Source of the DNA: Candidatus Sumerlaeota bacterium
GTDB taxonomy: Bacteria; Sumerlaeota; Sumerlaeia; JAFGJS01
Direction of reading: 5' to 3'
Length of the DNA stretch: 64,000 nucleotides
Assembly: GCA_016928995.1 (NCBI GenBank)
Contig: JAFGJS010000037.1
Coordinates: forward strand, 5,895 to 69,894
A model generated the notes under the pieces. That model worked only from the letters and a program-made list of their open reading frames with translations, was not told the DNA's origin and did not search any database. Positions 6,427 to 63,209 of the stretch are shown piece after piece. Positions within the stretch are counted from its first letter, which is position 1, and the number at the start of each line of letters is the position of its first letter. Both the position numbers and the translations under genes were made by a program.

Positions 6427-6753
6427 TTATCCGAACGGATTTTCCGAGTGGCTGCCGCCCAGGCTGTTGCGCAATCCGCGAACGCCGCGCCGCATCTCGT
6501 AGCGCAGGTTGTGCAGCGAGCGCACCATCGACATCTTCCAGCATGGTTCGAATTGCGGACAGTGAAAGCATTTCTCCCGGTCTTCATGTTCGGACGTGCC
6601 GAAGTCGTCGAACCAGCCGAAACTGATGCCGAAGCACTCCGGCATCTCCTGATCCGCTCGCGCTTGCTTTTCCATGTGCATCCCCCTTCCGCTTTGAATT
6701 GCACTGGCGTCATTGGAAGGCGCCATCATAACGAAAGAGTCCGGCGCCGTCAA
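6427..6753 (-). CDS. Small Cys-rich hypothetical protein (CFHCPQFEPC); the likely true start is the internal MHMEKQ at about 6681.
   Basis: The ORF has genome-like GC content. Four Cys are spaced as in a zinc ribbon. It sits directly downstream of fusA, where tuf would normally be. Confidence 0.3.
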   Translation of the reverse strand: MTAPDSFVMMAPSNDASAIQSGRGMHMEKQARADQEMPECFGISFGWFDDFGTSEHEDREKCFHCPQFEPCWKMSMVRSLHNLRYEMRRGVRGLRNSLGGSHSENPFG

Positions 6754-6775
6754 CCGCAGCGCGGATCATGGCATG

Positions 6776-6825
6776 AAAAAACGGCGCGCGGATCGATGAT
6801 ACTCCGCGCGCCGTTCGCATTTTTA
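6776..6825 (-). terminator. Rho-independent terminator, probably bidirectional, downstream of fusA.
   Basis: A perfect 12-13 bp GC-rich inverted repeat (ACGGCGCGCGGA...TCCGCGCGCCGT) is flanked by an A-run on one side and a T-run on the other. Confidence 0.6.
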
Positions 6826-6838
6826 TATCACGCTGTTG

Positions 6839-8938
<2,100 letters not shown>

Positions 8939-52406: not shown

Positions 52407-53717
52407 TCATCTTTCATATTGCGAGTATATTTTTCGCGCTTCGTCGGCGATGATGCTGAGGCCGCGTTGGACGGTCGCTTCGTTTTGGGCGTAGCTGATG
52501 CGGAGGCATTCGTCGCGCTGTTTCCATTCGCCTTCGAGGCCAGGAAAGAAGTGGCGGCCGGGCACAACCAGCACGCCGCGGGCTTTGAGGCGTTCGTAAA
52601 ATTCCTGCGAGCTGATGGGCAGATCGCGAAACCATAGCCAAAGGAAGAACGCGCCTTCGGGTTTATGCACGCGGCAGTCGATGCCGCGCAGCTCGCGGCG
52701 CAATTGCTCGACGGCGCGGTCGGCGCGCGACTGGTAGTAGGGCCGGATCACGTCGCGGCCAAGGCTGAGCAGTTTGTCTTCGCGGATGAGTTCATTGGCC
52801 AAGGTTGCGCCGATGCGGTTCGGCGCGAGGCACATGATCGCGCTGGCGGCGGAGATGGCGGCGATGATTTCCTCGCTGGCCACGACGATGCCGGTGCGCA
52901 GGGCGGGCAGGCCGAATTTGCTCAGGCTCATGCAGAGTATCGTGCGCGGACTCCATTGCGGCGCGGCGTCGCTGAAGACGATGCCGGGAAACGGCAGTCC
53001 GTAAGCGCCGTCGATGATCAGCGGCACGTCGCGCTCCTCGGCGAGGCGCATCAGGCGCTGCGTCTCCTCGTCGCTCATCATGTTCCCCGTGGGATTCGTC
53101 GGGCGCGAAAAGCAGATCGCGCCGGCGTCGTCAACGGCCTCCAGGCGCTGGAAATCGACGTGGTACTTGAACAGCAGATCGTCGATGTATTCGATCTCCG
53201 GCTGGACGGCGCGGAAGATGCCAGGCTCCAACCCCACGTCGGAATAGCCGATGTATTCCGGCGCGAGCGGCAGCAGAATTTTTTTGAACGAGCCGTCGCC
53301 ATAGCGTCCGGCGAACATATTGAACAGGATGAAGAACGCTCCTTGGCTGCCCGTGGTCAGCGCGATGTTGCGCGGTCCGACGTCCCAGCCGCATTCCCGG
53401 TGCAGCAGCGCGGCGAGCGATTCGATGAAAGCCGGGTTGCCCTGCGGCGAATCGTAATCGCCGATGGCGCGCTCGAATGCGCCGTCGCGCTCCAGGATGC
53501 GCTGCATGGCGCCGCGGATGCATTGCTGCACCTCGGGGATATGGGCCGGATTGCCGCCGCCGAGCATCAGCATGCCCTTTTCGGAGAGCGCACGGCCCAA
53601 GTCGTCCATCAACAGATTGATGCCGGAGTTGCTCGTAATCTTTTGGCCGAATGTTGAAAGTTTCATTCTGTTTTTTTCAGGCTTTCTTGCGCCAGTTGTT
53701 CGGTCATTCTTCGTCAA
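52407..53717 (-). CDS. PLP-dependent class I aminotransferase (valine-pyruvate / AvtA-like).
   Basis: Fold-type I motifs; SLSKFGLPALRTGIVVA contains the PLP-binding Lys context. Confidence 0.8.
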   Translation of the reverse strand: MTKNDRTTGARKPEKNRMKLSTFGQKITSNSGINLLMDDLGRALSEKGMLMLGGGNPAHIPEVQQCIRGAMQRILERDGAFERAIGDYDSPQGNPAFIESLAALLHRECGWDVGPRNIALTTGSQGAFFILFNMFAGRYGDGSFKKILLPLAPEYIGYSDVGLEPGIFRAVQPEIEYIDDLLFKYHVDFQRLEAVDDAGAICFSRPTNPTGNMMSDEETQRLMRLAEERDVPLIIDGAYGLPFPGIVFSDAAPQWSPRTILCMSLSKFGLPALRTGIVVASEEIIAAISAASAIMCLAPNRIGATLANELIREDKLLSLGRDVIRPYYQSRADRAVEQLRRELRGIDCRVHKPEGAFFLWLWFRDLPISSQEFYERLKARGVLVVPGRHFFPGLEGEWKQRDECLRISYAQNEATVQRGLSIIADEARKIYSQYER

Positions 53718-55104
53718 ACAATTCGTACTTCAGCATTTTATTATGCAGACTTTTGCGGCTGATACCGAGCAGGTCGGCGGCCTCTTGACGCCGGCCTTCC
53801 ACCTTGCGCAAGGCAGCGAGGATCATCTTGATCTCCAGTTTGGCGGTCTGCTCTTCGATCACGTCGCTCATGGATTGCGAGAAATCGAAGCCGCTCATCG
53901 ATAGATCGCCGGATTCATCCGTCTGCGGTTCAAGGCTGGCCGGCAGTGACGGGAGATGTTGCGGTTGCACCACGCCCTCACCGGTCAGCACCACGCCGCG
54001 TTGCACGGCGTTTTGCAGCTGGCGGATGTTCCCTGGCCAATTATACGAAACAAGGATGTCCATCGCTTCCGGATCGATGGAACGCACATCCTTGTTGAAG
54101 GCTTTTGAATAGTGGTCCAGGAAGTGATGCACCAGCAGCGGCAAGTCCTCCATGCGTTCGCGCAACGGCGGCGCCTCGATGGAGATCACATTGAGCCGGT
54201 AGAATAAATCCTCGCGAAACTTGCCCTGGTTCACTTCGGCTTGCAGGTTCCGGTTGGTCGCGGCGATCACGCGCAGGTCCACATGGATCGTCTGCACGCT
54301 GCCCACGCGCGAGATTTCCCGCTCCTGCAGCGTGCGGAGGAGCTTCGGCTGGAGGCTCAGCGGAATCTCGCCGATCTCATCAAGGAAAATCGAGCCGCCG
54401 CTCGCCGTTTCGAACAGCCCCTGCTTGCGCTGAAAGGCGCCGGTGAACGCGCCCTTTTCATGGCCGAAAAGCTCGCTTTCCAACAGCGTGTCCGGGATCG
54501 CCGCGCAGTTCACCTTGGTCAAATCCTGGTCGCGGCGCTGGCTGAGCGCATGGATCGCCTCGGCGATGAGCTCCTTGCCCGTGCCGCTCTCGCCGGTGAT
54601 CAGCACCGTCGCGTCGGAGTCGGCCACGCGCTGGATCATTTCGAACACGCGCTTCATCGCCGCGCTTTCGCCGATGATGTTCTGATACGCCGAGTGGCTG
54701 CGCAGCTGCGTTTGCAACTCCGCCACGCGGCGGGCCAGCGCGGCGCGCTCCACGGCCCGGCCGACGACCGTGCGCAGCTCCTGAATGTCGAAGGGCTTGT
54801 GAAACAGATCATACGCGCCGAGCTCATAAGCCTCGCGCGCGACCTTGGGCGAGCCGTAGGCCGTGACGATCAGGCAGACGGAAGACGGGCGCTTGTCGCG
54901 GATTTGCTTCATCGCCTCGATGCCGCCGAGGCGCGGCATCTTGATGTCGAGGATGATCACGTCGAAAACGGATTCCTGCGCTTTATCCACGGCCTGCTGT
55001 CCGTCCACGGCCTCGTCGATCTCATATCCCTCGCGGCGCAGCATTTCGCGCAGTGTCAAACGCACATTCAATTCATCATCGGCAATGAGGATTTTCGGCG
55101 ACAA
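53704..55104 (-). CDS. Sigma-54-dependent transcriptional response regulator (NtrC family: REC, AAA+ and Fis-type HTH).
   Basis: [15 protein letters not shown] Walker A, the GAFTGA sigma-54 contact motif and a C-terminal HTH ([16 protein letters not shown]). It overlaps the aminotransferase start by 14 nt. Confidence 0.9.
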
Positions 55105-55235: not shown

Positions 55236-55310
55236 GCGCGTGTAGCACAATGGCTAGTGCATCGGCCTTCCAAGCCGAGGATACGGGTTCGATTCCCGTC
55301 ACGCGCTCCA
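55236..55310 (+). tRNA. tRNA-Gly (anticodon UCC) with encoded CCA.
   Basis: Hand-folded cloverleaf: acceptor GCGCGTG/CACGCGC, D-arm GCAC-AATGGCT-AGTGC, anticodon stem TCGGC/GCCGA with loop CTTCCAA, and T-arm ACGGG-TTCGATT-CCCGT. Confidence 0.85.
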
Positions 55311-55497
55311 CCGAAATTGGGCGAATTACGAAGATTTACTTTTCTTCTTCCGCCGATTTTTCCGAGTGTTTTTCCAATAAAGTTTTGGTGTTGTCACAGG
55401 CGGCTTTCACCGAGGCATGATTGTTCATGCAACGGCGTCTATCGTCAGCGGTTGTCCGTTTCCACAGGTAGGATCGGGCTAAGCGTTTTCTTATCAG

Positions 55498-57039
55498 TTA
55501 TCGTTCGTATTGCAATTCGTCATTGGATTCTGTTTCGGCTGCGCCCGGTTTCCATGATGAGGCTGGACCTGAAGTTTGTTTTCCATAAGAAATGATAGCT
55601 TCGCTTAACTGGCTTCCCGTAACCGGAATGGGCGCTTTGATGAGTTCGGGAATATTATAGGCCCAGGCCAGCGAATCATAGTACGCCGGATTCTGCTGAG
55701 GCAGCAGAAACGGCTTGTGCGCCACGCCATTCGCATCGACATAACTGAAGAACGGCCGGGAAAAACGGCCATCAAGGCGTTTGCTGTTGAAAGCAATCCA
55801 GCGGCCATTGCTCGACCAGCTGTGCCAGGTGTCGGGCCGTTTGCTGCTGATGGATAGTTTGCGGTGTTCGCCGCTCTCCATATCCATCAGGTATAAGTCG
55901 CACTGGGCCTGGTGAATGGGAAAGTCGCTGTATGGCGAAACGTTGAACAAGAGGAACCGGTCATCGGGCGAGAATCGCGGCTGGTTGATGCTGCCGTCCA
56001 CTGCTTTCGCGGATAGAACCGTCTCCAGCTCGCCCCATTCGCCGCTTTCCGCATCATAGCGGATTCGCATTAAGTCGCAGCGCACTTCACGATAGCGTTC
56101 CTTCGGGAGCTGCGGCGCGCTGCAGAAATACAAGTATCGGCCGTCGCGGGACCATTCTGGAAATGTCTCCATGCGATCGATCTTGCTGATCTTGTTTTCT
56201 CGGATGACTTCTCGCGTATCCAGGCGGTACAGGTCCAAATCGCAGGCGAGGTCGAACACGTCGCGCACTTCCTGGACCTTCGTATGGATCAGCATCTGGA
56301 ATTTGTTGTCGGTGATGGCCAGAAGCTTGCCATTGGGATGCCAGGCGGAAAAACCGGTCTTCCCGGACGTCAGTTCGGTTTTCGTGCTGATGGGTTCGAC
56401 TTGATTATTTTCAACCAGCAACATGGGGGTGCCGTATGTTGAGGATCTTGCCTGAAGCGCCATATGATGGGGATCATTATTGAGATAAGAATGGCAGTGC
56501 ATGCACCCATAGCTGAACAACCGGTTATGCAATACGACGGATTCTTCGTAGTTTTCCAGATTCCTTTGATAGAAGCCCATGTCGTTCCAGATCACCGAAA
56601 TCATGATTTTCCGGTATGTTAAGAAAGGGTCGATGCCAGCGTCCGCAACGGTGTTTTCAATCGTCTCGAAGCGGCTCCAGTTGTTCTCGCTGTCTTTCAC
56701 GTATACATCAAAATAAAGTTTCCGCCCATGGTTGGCGTCCAGCAGTTTTTTCCAACGATCCACCGGGATTTCAATGTCTGGCTTTCGACTGTGAATTTCG
56801 ATGGGATCGCCGTCTTTGGAGTAAATTTTCACATAATGACCGGCGCCGTTTTCTTCGATCAGAAAATTCAGGGGAGCGATATTCGGAGGGATGACGACGC
56901 CGCAATAGTCCGGACGGATTTTAGCGGGACGGTCGATTGAGCGGGATGCATCGATGACCGCCGTCTTATCGCATTGGGTGAAAACCAACGCGCAAGCCAA
57001 CAATGCTAACGTCAATGTCGATGATGCCGTAGTTCTCAT
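55498..57039 (-). CDS. Secreted PD40/TolB-like beta-propeller protein with a conserved CxxCH motif (module copy A).
   Basis: Signal peptide ending in VFTQC. PD40-like repeats (WHPNGKLLA, WSRDGRYLYF, FSPDDRFLLF, WSSNGRWIAF). GCMHCH at about 56489-56506. Confidence 0.6.
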   Translation of the reverse strand: MRTTASSTLTLALLACALVFTQCDKTAVIDASRSIDRPAKIRPDYCGVVIPPNIAPLNFLIEENGAGHYVKIYSKDGDPIEIHSRKPDIEIPVDRWKKLLDANHGRKLYFDVYVKDSENNWSRFETIENTVADAGIDPFLTYRKIMISVIWNDMGFYQRNLENYEESVVLHNRLFSYGCMHCHSYLNNDPHHMALQARSSTYGTPMLLVENNQVEPISTKTELTSGKTGFSAWHPNGKLLAITDNKFQMLIHTKVQEVRDVFDLACDLDLYRLDTREVIRENKISKIDRMETFPEWSRDGRYLYFCSAPQLPKERYREVRCDLMRIRYDAESGEWGELETVLSAKAVDGSINQPRFSPDDRFLLFNVSPYSDFPIHQAQCDLYLMDMESGEHRKLSISSKRPDTWHSWSSNGRWIAFNSKRLDGRFSRPFFSYVDANGVAHKPFLLPQQNPAYYDSLAWAYNIPELIKAPIPVTGSQLSEAIISYGKQTSGPASSWKPGAAETESNDELQYER

Positions 57040-57164
57040 GCCCTTGCCCGTTATCGATCCCTTGATCTATTTTATCCAGCTGGATCGGCCGTGAAACGCT
57101 GCACCGGCCTCCTTGACCGATGACTCTTTTTAACGGATTAAAAGGTCCGTGATGCGCTTTCAAC

Positions 57165-59189
57165 TTACCGTATCAATTGACTCCCTGAAAATCCATAGAC
57201 GTTGTAGAAATAATAAGTGTCGCCGAATTTATCCGCCAATTCGGTCAAGGCCGCCTGTTTATCGTTATGCTTATTCAATATATTGATGAGCTCCTGAAGC
57301 CGTGTGATCGATTCCGGACTGATTTCATAGCCATATAAATCCGGTCTTTGACCCGTGGTCTGCATATAGATGACCAATGCTTCCTCAAACGCTCGCGGGA
57401 GCGTGGCATACTGAAAATCGCGCAGACGTTCGATATTATTAACAATCTCCAACACCTCTCTGCGCTGAAAATAACTGGCCATTAAGTATTCAAAGGCCAT
57501 TCGGTTATGCTTGTTTTGGGCGAGCAACTCGGTCAGCGAGCCTTCGTTGATACTGTCATCATCCGGTATCAGGGAACGAATCCGTTGGATTTCCTCGTCC
57601 GAGGAAAAATCAGGATCCTCTTCGAGCCGGTCCAACAGCTCCTGCGCCTGGTCCCTGTAGAGGAAATCCTCGCGCAGGATGCGCAACAACGCGCGGGCGG
57701 TCTCTGGTTGCCGCTTGACGATGTTGATCAGGGCCAGCCGCTTCAATGCCTGCGGATGGTATTTCAATCCCGCCAAAGCGTCCCAGGCGAAGTTCTCGGC
57801 TTCATTGACGCGGCCCAGCTCATAATAAGTCTCGCTGAGATCTAAAAATCGGGCCCTTCTTTCCATGGCGCTTAACGATCTTGATGCCGCTTCGACGTGA
57901 TAAAGACACCAGTCGATTGGCTGGGGATAGGCGAACATCTCATCAAGCAACCGGCCGCTATGGTAGAGCGCTCGATTGACATCATGGCAATAACAGACGT
58001 TGAAGTATTTCGTGCCAAGGTTGCGGGCTTCGTACAGAACTTCATTCCACATCCGCTGCTGGGAGTAAAAGCGGATGCGAAGATAATGTCTTTCTTGATG
58101 ATTCGTTGATAGCAGGACGACGCAGATTAGGATAATCAGCAGAATTATCGCGGATAACATACCATGCGATGGGTTTGCATTCTGGCTCGTATCGGCTTTG
58201 CTTTGCTGAATCTTATCGTCTTTGCTTTTCCGGCTTTTCTTTTTTCGGGCTTTGCCCTTATCGGCATCGACGCGCCTGAATCGGTTCTGGAGCTTGTCGC
58301 TGTTGTAGCGCCAATACACACTGGCCAATCCGGCGATCGGAAAAAAAACATAGAGAAAATAATAGAGCACGGGTCCATTAAAATAAACGGATAATGGGTC
58401 GTAGGGCAGGACTGCCGGATCATTGGGCAGGATGCAGAGATATACTTCGGCGGCGCTGATGTCGAACAGCAGCGCGCTGACTACGATGGGGATCAGCGCC
58501 GCTGAGATCAACGCCCCAAGATCCACAAGCCAAGCGCGTTTAACGAGCAATTCGTACAGCGCGCAGAGCATCACGAAAGGCAGATATGCGAAAACCGCCG
58601 CGTAGTAAATCACAGCGGAAAAAAACAAAAACAAGATGAAGCGAAGCGCGCCGCGCCGTATGCATGCGCGAGTATAAAGATAGAACAGCAGCAGACCAAG
58701 CGCGATGGATAAGTTCTCCATCATGAAGTGATAGTAGCGGCTGTATTGCAGCAGAACCACAATCGCCGGAATGAAGCGGAGCGCCCGCAGCCGTCCGTCG
58801 CTCATCACGTCCAGGCATTGGCCGGTTCCCCAGCTCAGCAACCAGGCGACAGCGGTGATGATCAGCGCTCCCGCCCATGAATAGTGGAAACAATAGAGCA
58901 GCACGCCCGCCGCGCACATCGCCGTCTTGCCGGGAAAACCTGGTATCTGCTCAAATCCCCCCGAACCCGGAACGTAAGGCGGCAGGCGCCAATAGCTCAT
59001 AATGCTGCAGTGAAGCAGCCTCGGATCGAGATAGAGGAAGATATAAAGAAAAAACAAGAGATAAAAAAACAGGTGAAAAAAAAACGTCGCGCGCCATCCG
59101 TCCCTCGCCGCATCTGTATTTGGCGCGTCAACCATCGTTTGCTGCTCCTGCAGAATTGAAGATTCAGTAGCATCAAGCCATGCCTGCAA
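57165..59189 (-). CDS. Polytopic membrane protein (about 10 TM) with a poly-basic loop and a C-terminal TPR-like helical domain (module copy A).
   Basis: The hydrophobic N-terminal half has an RKKKSRKSK loop. The C-terminal roughly 330 aa is helical-repeat-like. It is a paralogue of 61014..63065. Confidence 0.55.
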   Translation of the reverse strand: MQAWLDATESSILQEQQTMVDAPNTDAARDGWRATFFFHLFFYLLFFLYIFLYLDPRLLHCSIMSYWRLPPYVPGSGGFEQIPGFPGKTAMCAAGVLLYCFHYSWAGALIITAVAWLLSWGTGQCLDVMSDGRLRALRFIPAIVVLLQYSRYYHFMMENLSIALGLLLFYLYTRACIRRGALRFILFLFFSAVIYYAAVFAYLPFVMLCALYELLVKRAWLVDLGALISAALIPIVVSALLFDISAAEVYLCILPNDPAVLPYDPLSVYFNGPVLYYFLYVFFPIAGLASVYWRYNSDKLQNRFRRVDADKGKARKKKSRKSKDDKIQQSKADTSQNANPSHGMLSAIILLIILICVVLLSTNHQERHYLRIRFYSQQRMWNEVLYEARNLGTKYFNVCYCHDVNRALYHSGRLLDEMFAYPQPIDWCLYHVEAASRSLSAMERRARFLDLSETYYELGRVNEAENFAWDALAGLKYHPQALKRLALINIVKRQPETARALLRILREDFLYRDQAQELLDRLEEDPDFSSDEEIQRIRSLIPDDDSINEGSLTELLAQNKHNRMAFEYLMASYFQRREVLEIVNNIERLRDFQYATLPRAFEEALVIYMQTTGQRPDLYGYEISPESITRLQELINILNKHNDKQAALTELADKFGDTYYFYNVYGFSGSQLIR

Positions 59190-59395
59190 ACCATGCGAAA
59201 GTCAAGCGCAATGCCGGAGCGGTCAATTAAGGGGGTTCTTAAGGATTAAGTTTCGAGCTTAAGAAATGTAATCATTTGGATGCAAAGATATAAGGGAAAT
59301 CGCTATCAATTTAATTCCGGTGGACTGCCGGCGATGAGCACGGGCAGCCGTTGTTGTCGCTTCGAAAGGAAGGATCGGCTTGGTGTTTTCCAGAT

Positions 59396-60940
59396 TTATT
59401 GTTCGTATTGGGATCCGGCATTGGCATTTGTATTCGCCGTGCCCGGCTCCCATGAGGAAGCTTGACCTGGGATGAGTTTTTTATATGAAACGATGGCTTC
59501 GCTCAACTGACTTCCCTTCACCTGGATTGGCGACTTGATCAGTTCGGGAACCTGCAGCACCCAGACTAACTTGTCATAGTATGCCGGATCCTTTTGAGGC
59601 AGCACAAAGGGTTTGTGCGCCTCGCCGGTCTCGTCTACATAACTGATAAAGGGCCGGGAAAAACGGCCATCGATGCGACGGCTGCTGAACACGATCCAGC
59701 GGCTGTTGCTGCTCCAGCTGTGCCATGATTCGTTTTGTTCGCTGCTGATGGACAGCCTGCGATGCTCGCCGTTGGACAAATCCAGCATATGCAAATCGGA
59801 TTTGAGCTTATCCACGGGAAAATCGCTATGATCCGCAACGTTGAATAAAAGAAACCGGCCGTCGGGCGAGAAGCGCGGCTGGTTGATGCTGCCGTTCACT
59901 TCCTTTGCGGTCAGGACGGTCTCCAGTTCACCCCACTCTCCGCTTTCCATGTCGTAGCGGATTCGCATCAAATCGCATCGCACCTGGTGATAGAGTTCCT
60001 CAGGCAGTTGCGGCGCGCTGCAGAAATACAGGTATCGCCCATCGCGGGACCACTCTGGAAAAGTCTCCATGCGTTTCGGATTGCTGATCTTGCTATTGCT
60101 GATAACCTCTCCGGTTTCCACGCGATACAGATCCAGATCGCTGGCGTGGTCGAACACGTCGCGCACTTCCTCGGCGTTCGTATGGATCAGCATTTGGAAT
60201 TTATTGTCGCTGATGGCAAGCAGCTTGCCGCTGGGATGCCAAGCGACGAAGTTGACTTTGCCGGACGTCTGATCGGACTTCACACGTTTGGGCATGACTT
60301 CATCATTTTCGACCAGCAGCATCGGCGTGCCATATGCGCCGGATCTTGTCTGCAGCACCATATGATTCGGATCGTTGTTGAGGAAAGTATGACAATTCAC
60401 GCATCCGTAGCCGAACGACCGGTTGTGCAACACCACCGATTCATCGTAGTTTTCCAGATTCCGTTGATAAATGCCCAGATTTCTCCAGATGAGGCAAAGT
60501 TGGATTCGCCGGTACGCCAGGTAAGGATCAATCTCCTCCTGCGTGATGGAATTCTCGATCGGCTCGAACCGGCTCCAGTTGTTTTCGCGGTCTTTCACAG
60601 ATACTTCAAAATAAAGTTTCCGCCCGCGGTTGGAGTCCAGCAGTTTTTTCCAACGATCCACCGGGATTTCAATATCTGGCTTTCGACTGTGAATCTCGAT
60701 AGGATCGCCGTCTTTGGAGTAAATTTTCACATAATGACCGGCGCCGTTCTCTTCGATGAGAAAATTCAAGGGGGCGATATTCGGAGGGATGACGACGCCG
60801 CAATAGTCCGGACGGATTTTCGCGGGACGGTCGACAGAGCGGGATGCACCGACGGCGGCCTGCTTGCCGCACTGGACAAAAACCAACGCGCAAACTGACA
60901 ATGCCGCAAACGTCAATGTCAATGATATCCTCGTTTTCAT
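59396..60940 (-). CDS. Secreted PD40/TolB-like beta-propeller protein with a CxxCH motif (module copy B).
   Basis: Paralogue of 55498..57039. GCVNCH at about 60385-60405. The N-terminal roughly 110 aa is nearly identical to copy A. Confidence 0.6.
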   Translation of the reverse strand: MKTRISLTLTFAALSVCALVFVQCGKQAAVGASRSVDRPAKIRPDYCGVVIPPNIAPLNFLIEENGAGHYVKIYSKDGDPIEIHSRKPDIEIPVDRWKKLLDSNRGRKLYFEVSVKDRENNWSRFEPIENSITQEEIDPYLAYRRIQLCLIWRNLGIYQRNLENYDESVVLHNRSFGYGCVNCHTFLNNDPNHMVLQTRSGAYGTPMLLVENDEVMPKRVKSDQTSGKVNFVAWHPSGKLLAISDNKFQMLIHTNAEEVRDVFDHASDLDLYRVETGEVISNSKISNPKRMETFPEWSRDGRYLYFCSAPQLPEELYHQVRCDLMRIRYDMESGEWGELETVLTAKEVNGSINQPRFSPDGRFLLFNVADHSDFPVDKLKSDLHMLDLSNGEHRRLSISSEQNESWHSWSSNSRWIVFSSRRIDGRFSRPFISYVDETGEAHKPFVLPQKDPAYYDKLVWVLQVPELIKSPIQVKGSQLSEAIVSYKKLIPGQASSWEPGTANTNANAGSQYEQ

Positions 60941-61013
60941 GGCCTTTCCCGTTGTAAATCCCTTGAGAAATTTCTAACCAGCCTGATCGGCGGCCCCGCG
61001 CCGTATTTTCAAA

Positions 61014-63065
61014 TCACCGTATCAACTGACATCCTGCAAAGCCATAGATGTTATAGAAATAATATGTGCCGCCGAATTGATCCGCCAATTCGTTCAAAGC
61101 CGCCTGTTGATCGCCATACTTACTCGATGCGCTGAGGAAAGTTTGGAATCGCTTGAGCGATTCCGGGCTGATTTCATAACCATGTAAATCCGGTTTTTCA
61201 CCCGTGGTCTGAGTATAGATGAGCAATGCTTCCTCAAGCGCTCGCGGGATTGCGGAATAATGAAATTCACTCAGACGTTCGATGTTTTGAACGATCTCCG
61301 GAACCTTTCCGCGCTGAAGATAATCGACCATTAAGTATTCAAACGCCATCCGGTTATGCTTGTTTTTGGCGAGCAACTCTTCGAGAGAACACCCATAGAT
61401 GCTGTCGTTGTCCGGCGTCAGGGAACGGACTTGTTGAATTTCCTCGTCCGCAGAAAAATCAGGATCTGCCTCGAGCCGGTCCAACAGTTTCTGCGCCTGG
61501 TCCCTGTAAAAAAAATCCTCACGCAAGGTGAGCAGGAACGTGCGCGCGGTATCCGGCCGGCGCTTGACGATATTGATCAAGGCCAGCCGCTTCAAGCCCA
61601 TTGGATGGTATTGCAGCCCCGTCAAGGCGTCCAAGGCGTAGTGTTCGGCGCCATTGACGCGCCCCAGTTCATAAAAAGTCTCGCTGAGATCCAAAAATCG
61701 AGCCCTTTTTTCCATCGCAGATAATGATCTTGATGCAGCTTCCACATTATAAAGGCACCAGCCGGTTGGTTGGGGATAGGCGAACATGTCATCAAGCAGC
61801 CGGCCGCTATGATAGAGCGCTCGATTGACATCATGGCAATAGCAGACGTTGAAGCGTTCCGCCTCGAGTTTGCGGCCTTCGCGCAGAACATCGTCCCACA
61901 TCCGCTGCTGAGAATAATAGCGAATGCGAAGATAGTGTCGTTCTTGATGATTCGTTGAAAACAGGACGGCGCTGAAAATGACAATCAGCAGGATCGCCGC
62001 AGATAACATGCCCTGCGATTGGCTTGCAATCTGGCTTGTATCGGCTTTGCTTTGCTCAATCTTGCCTTTTTTGTTTTTCCGCTCTTTCTTTTTTTGGGCT
62101 TTGCCCTTATTGGCCTTGAAACGTCTGAATCGATCCTGGAGCTTGTCGCCGTTATAGCGCCAATACACGCAAGCCAATCCAGCGATCGGAAAAAAAACAT
62201 AGAGAAAATAATAGAGCACGGGTCCATGAAAATAAACGGTTAATGGATCGTACGGCACGATTGCCGGATCATTGGGCAGGATGCAAAGATATGCTTCGGC
62301 GGCATTGATGTCGAACAGCAGCGCGCTAATCGCGAGGGGGATCAGCGCCGCTGAGGCCAGCGTCCCAAGACCAACAAGCCAAGCTCGTTTGATCAGCGAT
62401 TCATACAGCGCGCAAAGCATCACGAACGGCAGATATGCGAATACCGCCGCGTAGTAGATCGCGACGGAAAAAATTAAAAACAGAACGAAGCGAAGCGTGC
62501 CACGCCGCATGCATGCGCGAGTATAAAGGTAAAACAGCAGCAGACCAAGCGCGAGCGATATATTCTCCATCAGGTAGTGATGGTAGCGGCTGTATTGCAG
62601 CAGGACCACAATCGCCGGAATGAAGCGAAACGCCCGCAGCCGACCGCCGCTTATCGCATCCAGGCATTGGCCGGTTCCCCAACTCAGCAGTCCGGCGGCG
62701 GCGGTGATGATCAGCGCTCCCGCCCATGAATAGTGGAAACAATAGAGCAGCACACCCGCTGCACACACTGCGGTTTTGCCGGGAAAATCCGGCATTTCCA
62801 CAAATCCTCCCGAGCCCGGAACGTAAGGCGGCAGACGCCAAAAGCTAGGAAGACTGAAGTGAATCAGCCTTGGATCGAGATAGAGGAAGATATAAAGAAA
62901 AAACAGGAGATAAAAAAACAGGCTAAAAAAAAACGCCTCGCGCCTCCCGCCGTTCGCTGCATCTGAATGCGGCGCGTCAACCATCGTCCGCTGCTCCCGC
63001 GGTGTTTTTGCAGAATTGAAAATCCAATAGCAACAAGCCATGCCTGCAATCCGCGCGAAAGTCAA
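61014..63065 (-). CDS. Polytopic membrane protein with a C-terminal TPR-like domain (module copy B).
   Basis: Paralogue of 57165..59189, with the same architecture and a similar poly-basic loop (QKKKERKNKKGK). Confidence 0.55.
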   Translation of the reverse strand: MTFARIAGMACCYWIFNSAKTPREQRTMVDAPHSDAANGGRREAFFFSLFFYLLFFLYIFLYLDPRLIHFSLPSFWRLPPYVPGSGGFVEMPDFPGKTAVCAAGVLLYCFHYSWAGALIITAAAGLLSWGTGQCLDAISGGRLRAFRFIPAIVVLLQYSRYHHYLMENISLALGLLLFYLYTRACMRRGTLRFVLFLIFSVAIYYAAVFAYLPFVMLCALYESLIKRAWLVGLGTLASAALIPLAISALLFDINAAEAYLCILPNDPAIVPYDPLTVYFHGPVLYYFLYVFFPIAGLACVYWRYNGDKLQDRFRRFKANKGKAQKKKERKNKKGKIEQSKADTSQIASQSQGMLSAAILLIVIFSAVLFSTNHQERHYLRIRYYSQQRMWDDVLREGRKLEAERFNVCYCHDVNRALYHSGRLLDDMFAYPQPTGWCLYNVEAASRSLSAMEKRARFLDLSETFYELGRVNGAEHYALDALTGLQYHPMGLKRLALINIVKRRPDTARTFLLTLREDFFYRDQAQKLLDRLEADPDFSADEEIQQVRSLTPDNDSIYGCSLEELLAKNKHNRMAFEYLMVDYLQRGKVPEIVQNIERLSEFHYSAIPRALEEALLIYTQTTGEKPDLHGYEISPESLKRFQTFLSASSKYGDQQAALNELADQFGGTYYFYNIYGFAGCQLIR

Positions 63066-63209
63066 GCGCTATGCCGGGAACGGCCGGTTAACCGTTACAT
63101 TGTATACAGGATCGCGCTTGATCTGCAATCAGTTGACGACGCGGCATCAGATCCAGATCTGCCTTGTGGCGAATCCGAGTTGCGTTTTGCGCGGCGACTT
63201 TCTTCACGC

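Follow-up and report, generated by a model that had tools for sequence, protein, structure and literature searches.

How do two neighboring genes come to agree closely over their first few hundred nucleotides (nt) and to differ widely over the rest? The question is raised by a 64,000-nt stretch of a metagenome-assembled genome (MAG) of a Candidatus Sumerlaeota bacterium (GenBank assembly GCA_016928995.1, contig JAFGJS010000037.1, positions 5,895 to 69,894 of the forward strand; hereafter, the window). At 55.4 to 63.2 kb, the minus strand of the window carries a two-gene unit twice, head-to-tail, each copy consisting of a DUF6057 gene (M) followed by a gene for a TolB-like PD40-repeat protein with a CxxCH motif (P). 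An earlier note, made from the sequence alone, had pointed to a sharp identity step between the two PD40 genes and ascribed it to recent gene conversion or partial re-duplication. Our analysis indicates that the upstream PD40 gene, P2, is very probably a recombinant (mosaic) gene within a duplicated cassette. Approximately 2.6 kb of unit 2, comprising the 5' flank, M2, the spacer, the signal peptide, and the P2 N-domain to codon ~125 to 131, is of unit 1 ancestry (lineage A) and postdates the divergence from the nearest single-copy relative, Po. The remaining CxxCH and propeller part of P2 (amino acids [aa in the following] ~132 to 475) belongs to an older, distinct paralog lineage (lineage B), represented elsewhere in the MAG by P0005, P0015, and P0027. 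The identity step marks where this shared ~2.6-kb block ends on its 3' side.

Transcription runs in the order M2, P2, M1, P1. The units were delimited from open reading frames (ORFs), Pfam matches, flank homology, and whole-unit alignment, as follows:

55443..59290, minus strand: cassette unit 1 (5' flank, M1, spacer, P1, and ~55 nt of 3' flank)
57165-59189, minus strand: ORF of M1, the DUF6057 gene of unit 1 (probable ATG at 59135)
55498-57039, minus strand: P1, the PD40/TolB-like gene of unit 1
59341..63190, minus strand: cassette unit 2 (5' flank, M2, spacer, P2, and ~55 nt of 3' flank)
61014-63065, minus strand: ORF of M2, the DUF6057 gene of unit 2 (probable ATG at 62984)
59396-60940, minus strand: P2, the PD40/TolB-like gene of unit 2

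The units abut, with the 3' flank of unit 2 passing directly into the 5' flank of unit 1. Homology between the units extends into the flanks, over ~55 nt 3' of both P stops and ~95 to 155 nt 5' of both M starts.

Identity and silent divergence between P1 and P2

The identity step proved to be real, although its extent and degree had been overstated. The range described as nearly identical (56650-57039 against 60560-60940) shows 88% identity (344/390). Within the 5' part, the signal-peptide codons (first 84 nt) are only 76% identical and include a 3-nt indel, while the core, nt ~85 to 380 of the P1 coding sequence (window ~56660-56955 against ~60558-60853), is 93% identical with 18 to 20 differences (243/261 over nt 85 to 345). 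The remainder of the gene (~1.2 kb) is 75% identical (900/1194), and the longest exact nucleotide match between the two genes is 47 nt. At the protein level, a run of 66 aa (DRPAKIRPDY...WKKLLD, P1 aa 36 to 101) is indeed identical, but the peptide that had been quoted begins with a mismatch (SRSI in P1 versus SRSV in P2). The two copies of the tract are located as follows:

56662..56958, minus strand: high-identity tract in P1 (codons 28 to 126, N-terminal beta-domain; ~93% identical to the P2 tract; 66-aa run at 56737-56934)
60560..60856, minus strand: high-identity tract in P2 (codons 29 to 127, unit 1 [A] lineage; 66-aa run at 60635-60832)

Silent sites follow the same division. A scan of the proportion of synonymous differences (pS) between P1 and P2 gave 0.18 in aa 28 to 117 versus 0.52 outside; the observed statistic was reached in none of 200 codon permutations. 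Divergence is not uniform along the gene, whereas a simple duplication would be expected to leave it uniform. When only codons for identical residues are counted, differences occur at 9/80 in the tract versus 89/232 in the rest (Fisher p=1.8e-6). A GENECONV-style global permutation returned p=0.014 for codons 2 to 126.

An identity step could also arise without recombination if, after simple duplication, purifying selection, whether on protein, on codon usage, or on mRNA structure, had acted more strongly on the N-domain. Consistent with selection on the protein, the tract shows no amino acid change over 66 codons (proportion of nonsynonymous differences [pN]=0) while still holding its 18 to 20 nucleotide differences. 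The silent difference between P1 and Po is also somewhat lower in the tract than in the rest (0.20 versus 0.27), but this reduction is not significant (p=0.11). As a family-wide control, tract and rest were compared in 1,431 homolog pairs from other organisms. Tract minus rest was -5.4 +/- 7.0 points, with a maximum of +18.9; the P1-P2 value of +20 points lies beyond this maximum. Family-wide, silent divergence in the tract is normally equal to or above that of the rest. Because, across the family, protein conservation is lower in the tract than elsewhere and silent sites there are not constrained, constraint as judged from these comparisons does not account for the step.

Ancestry of the two parts of P2

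Mo-Po (P0123 and P0002, locus L001), a cassette present in single copy in another bin of the same sample, serves as the nearest ortholog of unit 1. Four further cassettes with the JXA32_ locus-tag prefix are paralogs from the same MAG (P0124-P0004, P0127-P0015, P0125-P0005, and P0126-P0027). As a side observation, L001 (JAFGFZ010000405.1) is binned as "Pirellulales bacterium" yet carries the closest relatives (67 to 79% identity) of the Sumerlaeota cassette, from the same sample; its bin assignment may be wrong.

Neighbor-joining trees (500 bootstraps) were built by segment. Over aa 118 to 513 of the PD40 proteins, P2 groups with P0005, P0015, and P0027 at 100% bootstrap support, while P1 groups with Po (95%) and with Po and P0004 (96%). 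Over aa 28 to 117, P1, P2, and Po group together (96%), with P1 and P2 paired (78%). The DUF6057 tree pairs M1 with M2 (99%) within a group of M1, M2, and Mo (100%). Constraint on the N-domain cannot place P2 with the three B paralogs in one part of the gene and with P1 in the other, and we regard selection after a simple duplication as a hardly credible source of the step.

Synonymous substitutions per synonymous site (dS) rank the pairs in the same two ways. Outside the tract, P1-Po (0.66) is the closest pair, followed by P1-P2 (0.93) and P2-Po (1.34); inside it, P1-P2 (0.20) is closest, followed by P1-Po (0.36) and P2-Po (0.44). For the M genes, M1-M2 (0.42) is below M1-Mo (0.77; silent-codon p=4e-7). 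Three-sequence site patterns, at 120-nt resolution, are dominated by sites at which units 1 and 2 agree and the Mo-Po unit differs, from upstream of M to ~56727/60625; past this point, sites at which unit 1 and the Mo-Po unit agree and unit 2 differs prevail.

A 3SEQ-style walk, with P2 as the child of P1-like and P0005-like parents, located the change more closely. Up to aa 125, 39/41 informative sites are P1-like, followed by a P0005-like descent to aa 474 (breakpoint at aa 125 to 131, p<5e-5). Diagnostic A/B residues in P2 divide accordingly, with 21 A and 2 B in aa 1 to 120 and 8 A and 36 B in aa 121 to 470. P2 shares the derived B-clade motifs VDKxKSDLHMLD, SSRRIDGRF, and VLQVPELI, which are absent in outgroups and thus argue against convergence. 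Identity between P2 and P0005 reaches 95% in aa 161 to 200 and is 79% over aa 118 to 470.

An AlphaFold model of P1 (pLDDT, 89.7) comprises an N-terminal helix (aa 5 to 29), predicted to be a signal or anchor helix; a beta-rich N-domain (aa ~33 to 131); and a beta-propeller (aa ~139 to 470). According to this model, the junction would fall where the N-domain ends, immediately ahead of the first propeller strand. We infer that paralogous cassettes exchanged sequence by homologous recombination or gene conversion, leaving a junction at the N-domain/propeller boundary. The resulting parts of unit 2 are as follows:

60941..63190, minus strand: M2 gene, M-P spacer, and 5' flank (A lineage; ancestry with unit 1 younger than the split from the single-copy ortholog)
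60547..60563, minus strand: recombination junction in P2 (P1 numbering aa 125 to 131; P1 equivalent 56649-56665; 3SEQ-style breakpoint and site-pattern switch)
59516..60546, minus strand: B-lineage block of P2 (aa ~132 to 475; CxxCH region and beta-propeller; closest to P0005; mixed affinity at ~aa 231 to 340)
59396..59515, minus strand: C-terminal tail of P2 (aa ~476 to 514; P1-like at the protein level)

In the tail, 12 informative sites are P1-like versus 4 that are P0005-like, and the motifs GSQLSEAI and ASSWxPG are common to P1.

The earlier preference for gene conversion or partial re-duplication over simple duplication is thus borne out by silent-site homogenization, the family-wide constraint control, and the topology switch at codon ~125 to 131. 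The shared part is not limited to ~330 nt of the PD40 gene, as had been described. It extends upstream through the intergenic spacer, the entire DUF6057 gene, and ~100 to 150 nt of 5' flank, to ~2.6 kb in all. Likewise, the remaining two-thirds of P2 are more diverged from P1, as claimed, but they belong to another paralog lineage. Because the step marks the edge of a block that takes in the partner gene as well, annotation or evolutionary analysis that treats P1 and P2 as simple duplicates would be wrong. Within this block, the two units resemble each other more in the PD40 part than in the M part (93% versus ~83% identity) because the former is under stronger purifying selection (pN of 0.04 versus 0.13).

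Nor is the event very recent, given a tract dS of ~0.2; it may coincide with the divergence of M1 and M2. Silent-codon differences are lower in the tract than between M1 and M2 (0.13 versus 0.22, p=0.03), which gives only marginal support to the tract as a separate event later than the M1/M2 divergence, and this candidate was set aside. When scaled to Po and Mo, the silent-site ratios are alike (0.65 for P1-P2/P1-Po in the tract and 0.59 for M1-M2/M1-Mo); thus, one event is enough for the tract and the M1/M2 relationship.

The divergence of P1 from Po (L001 8180-9736) is itself mosaic, with a pS of 0.14 to 0.30 in aa 331 to 465 versus 0.5 to 0.7 elsewhere (GENECONV-style p<0.0002 for P1 codons 328 to 469). 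This suggests further exchange between populations or with paralogs.

Order of events

Two orders of events could have produced the mosaic. In the order that we prefer, a whole A-type unit would first have been duplicated in tandem; ectopic conversion from a B-type paralog would then have overwritten the propeller-coding part of the upstream copy, so that unit 2 would have stayed A-type in its 5' part, in the tail, and in the 3' flank. This order is favored because the head-to-tail flanks abut, the 3' flank is homologous, and the tail of P2 is P1-like.

The reverse order is quite possible and nearly as likely. It starts from an old array with a B-type unit upstream and an A-type unit downstream. 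Unit 1 would then have been the template for a long conversion or gap repair that replaced the 5' flank, the M gene, and the first ~125 codons of the B-type unit. Here the donor is adjacent and none unsampled is needed, and the single event covers both the M1/M2 relationship and the tract (0.59 and 0.65). The divergence between the P2 propeller and P0005 predates the P1/Po split, as this order would have it. A B-then-A arrangement is also found on a 40-kb contig of the MAG (40426), on which P0127-P0015 (B) is followed by a RidA-like gene and P0124-P0004 (A), although the common order would be coincidental with a 1-in-2 chance. For the reverse order, the tract would have to span at least 2.6 kb, including an M gene that would have been only ~50% identical at the protein level, and would need a homologous anchor upstream of M. 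Extra events would be required to account for the tail of P2, which is P1-like, and for its homologous 3' flank. Unequal crossing-over between a B-type P gene and P1 in such a B-A array was considered and dropped: it would give three units with an intact B unit upstream, whereas a GH2-like gene lies directly upstream of M2 instead.

Several points weigh against a mosaic P2 formed by duplication followed by conversion. None of the sampled B paralogs is similar enough to P2 to have been the donor: P0005 and P2 (79% over aa 118 to 470) are further apart than P1 and Po, and the preferred order therefore needs an unsampled or lost donor. The DNA comparison covers P1, P2, and Po, and the other paralogs of the MAG were compared as proteins only; exact-protein look-ups for P1, P0004, and P0005 returned no hit, and the Logan contigs extend just 150 to 180 nt into the PD40 genes of these paralogs. 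Po is labeled an ortholog solely as the nearest relative, and its flanking genes differ from those of the window. The P1-likeness of the P2 tail reaches no significance at silent sites (p=0.56) or in the GENECONV-style test (p~1). A second candidate conversion tract at P1 codons 237 to 328, with a pS dip of 0.22 at aa 241 to 270, was not significant (GENECONV-style p=0.19); it was dropped and is kept only as the region of mixed affinity. Finally, the sequence is a MAG contig, and the junction is known from the assembly alone.

Recurrence in other cassettes

The generality of the pattern was surveyed in 78 loci from other genomes, containing 93 PD40 copies. A DUF6057 gene lies directly upstream of at least 75/93 of these copies. 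The cassettes are distributed over Planctomycetota, Verrucomicrobiota, Sumerlaeota, Bacteroidota, KSB1, Latescibacterota, and others, and occur in tandem at nine loci: four each at L009 and L012; three each at L057 and L080; and two each at L007, L019, L023, L035, and L046.

Two further pairs show the same kind of step. In the MAG itself, identity between P0005 and P0027 drops from 88% in the tract to 69% in the remainder, and their M partners share only 51%; the 3SEQ-style breakpoint falls at aa 135 to 141 (p<5e-5). In a Bacteroidota MAG (L080), tandem copies 1 and 2 are 86 to 98% identical over ~430 nt at the PD40 5' end (2330-2770 against 6510-6940) on a background of ~50% identity that includes the DUF6057 genes. 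The pS is 0.19 versus 0.83, and the tract ends at ~aa 144. This is a textbook short conversion tract, covering the gene start and the N-domain in both PD40 copies. The junction in P2 coincides with a predicted domain boundary, and exchange confined to the N-domain is seen again in a second pair of this genome and in a Bacteroidota MAG unrelated to it; this points to modular evolution of a large, uncharacterized, multicopy two-gene family.

Within-genome pairs as a class are not shifted toward homogenized N-domains (34 within-genome versus 4,152 between-genome pairs; Mann-Whitney p=0.19), and 2/34 lie above the between-genome 99th percentile. A general tendency to N-domain homogenization among paralogs of one genome is thus unsupported overall and holds for individual cases only. 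The opposite discordance, a similar propeller with a divergent N-domain, occurs in many pairs from different genomes. N-domain exchange is recurrent but episodic.

One pair from bins assigned to different phyla shows a comparable pattern. The PD40 genes of L021 (uncultured Pirellulales MAG) and L037 (Candidatus Aegiribacteria MAG) show 91% identity over the N-domain tract and 75% over the remainder, with silent-codon differences of 0.09 versus 0.45 (p=6e-10). Either recombination after horizontal transfer or mis-binning would give this result.

Assembly of the repeated segment

Multicopy cassettes also invite misassembly, and the contig could be a chimera joined across a repeat common to several cassette copies or strains, in which case the mosaic would not exist on a real chromosome. 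The MAG holds at least 6 cassettes, and the sample also contains a related population (Po). Moreover, independent k=31 Logan contigs of this sample (SRR13394437) all break 150 to 180 nt into PD40 genes, in the conserved VIPPNIAPLNF-coding stretch (L081 9427-9579, L082 4910-5080, and L083 2200-2379); this segment is thus a repeat in the assembly graph. Such repeats fragment short-k assemblies exactly here, which bears on MAG quality. However, the longest exact matches are 47 nt for P1/P2, 30 nt for P1/Po, and 26 nt for P2/Po. A k of 87 to 141 is typical for MAG contigs of this kind; with exact matches far below that length, a graph crossover between these sequences is unlikely. The tract also differs between the two copies rather than being identical, and a like pattern occurs both in the independent assembly of an unrelated organism (L080) and between two other contigs of this MAG. 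Taken together, these observations make an assembly artifact very unlikely.

Protein families and predicted fold

M1 and M2 are DUF6057 (PF19529) membrane proteins, scoring 260.9 and 261.8 bits against a gathering cutoff of 29.8 (E ~1e-77 [4e-77]); a literature search turned up no paper mentioning DUF6057 in the library covered. P1 and P2 are exported PD40-repeat proteins (Pfam PD40 E=7e-13). NCBI records matching the cassette proteins derive from a Candidatus Sumerlaeota MAG. The best Foldseek matches of the P1 model are TolB chains (E~1e-14, TM score of 0.44 to 0.55, ~13% identity). Because the proteins score 36.9 bits on the TolB equivalog model TIGR02800, under its cutoff of 343, and none of tolQ, tolR, tolA, and pal is among the cassette neighbors in the window, P1 and P2 are TolB-like in fold only and are not TolB orthologs. 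Like TolB, a periplasmic component of Tol-Pal, the cassette protein has a predicted N-terminal alpha/beta domain followed by a PD40 beta-propeller. It differs in its low sequence identity, in an invariant CxxCH motif, in being multicopy, and in having DUF6057 rather than tolQRA-pal as its partner.

The CxxCH motif (C179, C182, and H183) is invariant across 60 homologs from several phyla and, over P1 aa 179 to 183, lies in the stretch GCMHCH in P1 and GCVNCH in P2. It is a predicted heme c attachment motif, by which the proteins would be exported beta-propellers with covalently bound heme. Some database entries label PD40/CxxCH homologs "cytochrome C biosynthesis protein."

Comparison with known systems

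Interlocus gene conversion or recombination that yields mosaic paralogs is a well-known process. As in concerted evolution by ectopic conversion (tufA/tufB and multicopy surface-protein families), the segment described here is sharp edged and homogenized, silent sites included, and the trees are incongruent. Unlike tufA/tufB-type cases, the block is old (dS ~0.2 to 0.4) and includes a whole neighboring gene, and the far side of the junction derives from a distinct paralog lineage, making P2 a chimera. The process is known; the example is new, in an uncharacterized, widespread two-gene family. General interest is modest, as intragenomic recombination leading to a chimeric paralog is already familiar, but the case is well supported.

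The cassettes also resemble families with a constant N-terminal and a variable C-terminal part, such as polymorphic toxins (Rhs and CdiA-CT) and pilin or opa cassettes, in their conserved N-module, divergent C-modules, and tandem arrangement, and in junctions that cluster at the module boundary (here aa 125 to 144, in three independent cases). In contrast to those families, the PD40 cassettes have no silent or truncated copies, no toxin/immunity genes, and no sign of programmed or high-frequency switching; every PD40 copy is full-length with its own DUF6057 partner, and the resemblance is an analogy only. A broader reading, which we consider unlikely, is that the cassettes form a modular family in which the N-domain is repeatedly exchanged or homogenized between coresident copies while the propellers diversify in ligand specificity, recombination at the domain boundary maintaining an architecture of constant N-module and variable propeller. 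In this reading, the N-domain would perhaps be exchanged in this way owing to its docking onto a shared or DUF6057 partner. A role in antigenic or specificity diversification, raised in the earlier note, is speculation.

Neighboring genes

The cassette pair is flanked by the GH2-like gene, a tRNA-Gly gene, and a gene for a sigma-54-type response regulator:

55236-55310, plus strand: tRNA-Gly(TCC), just downstream of P1, with the cassette array on one side and the response-regulator gene on the other
53704-55104, minus strand: sigma-54-type (NtrC-like) response-regulator gene

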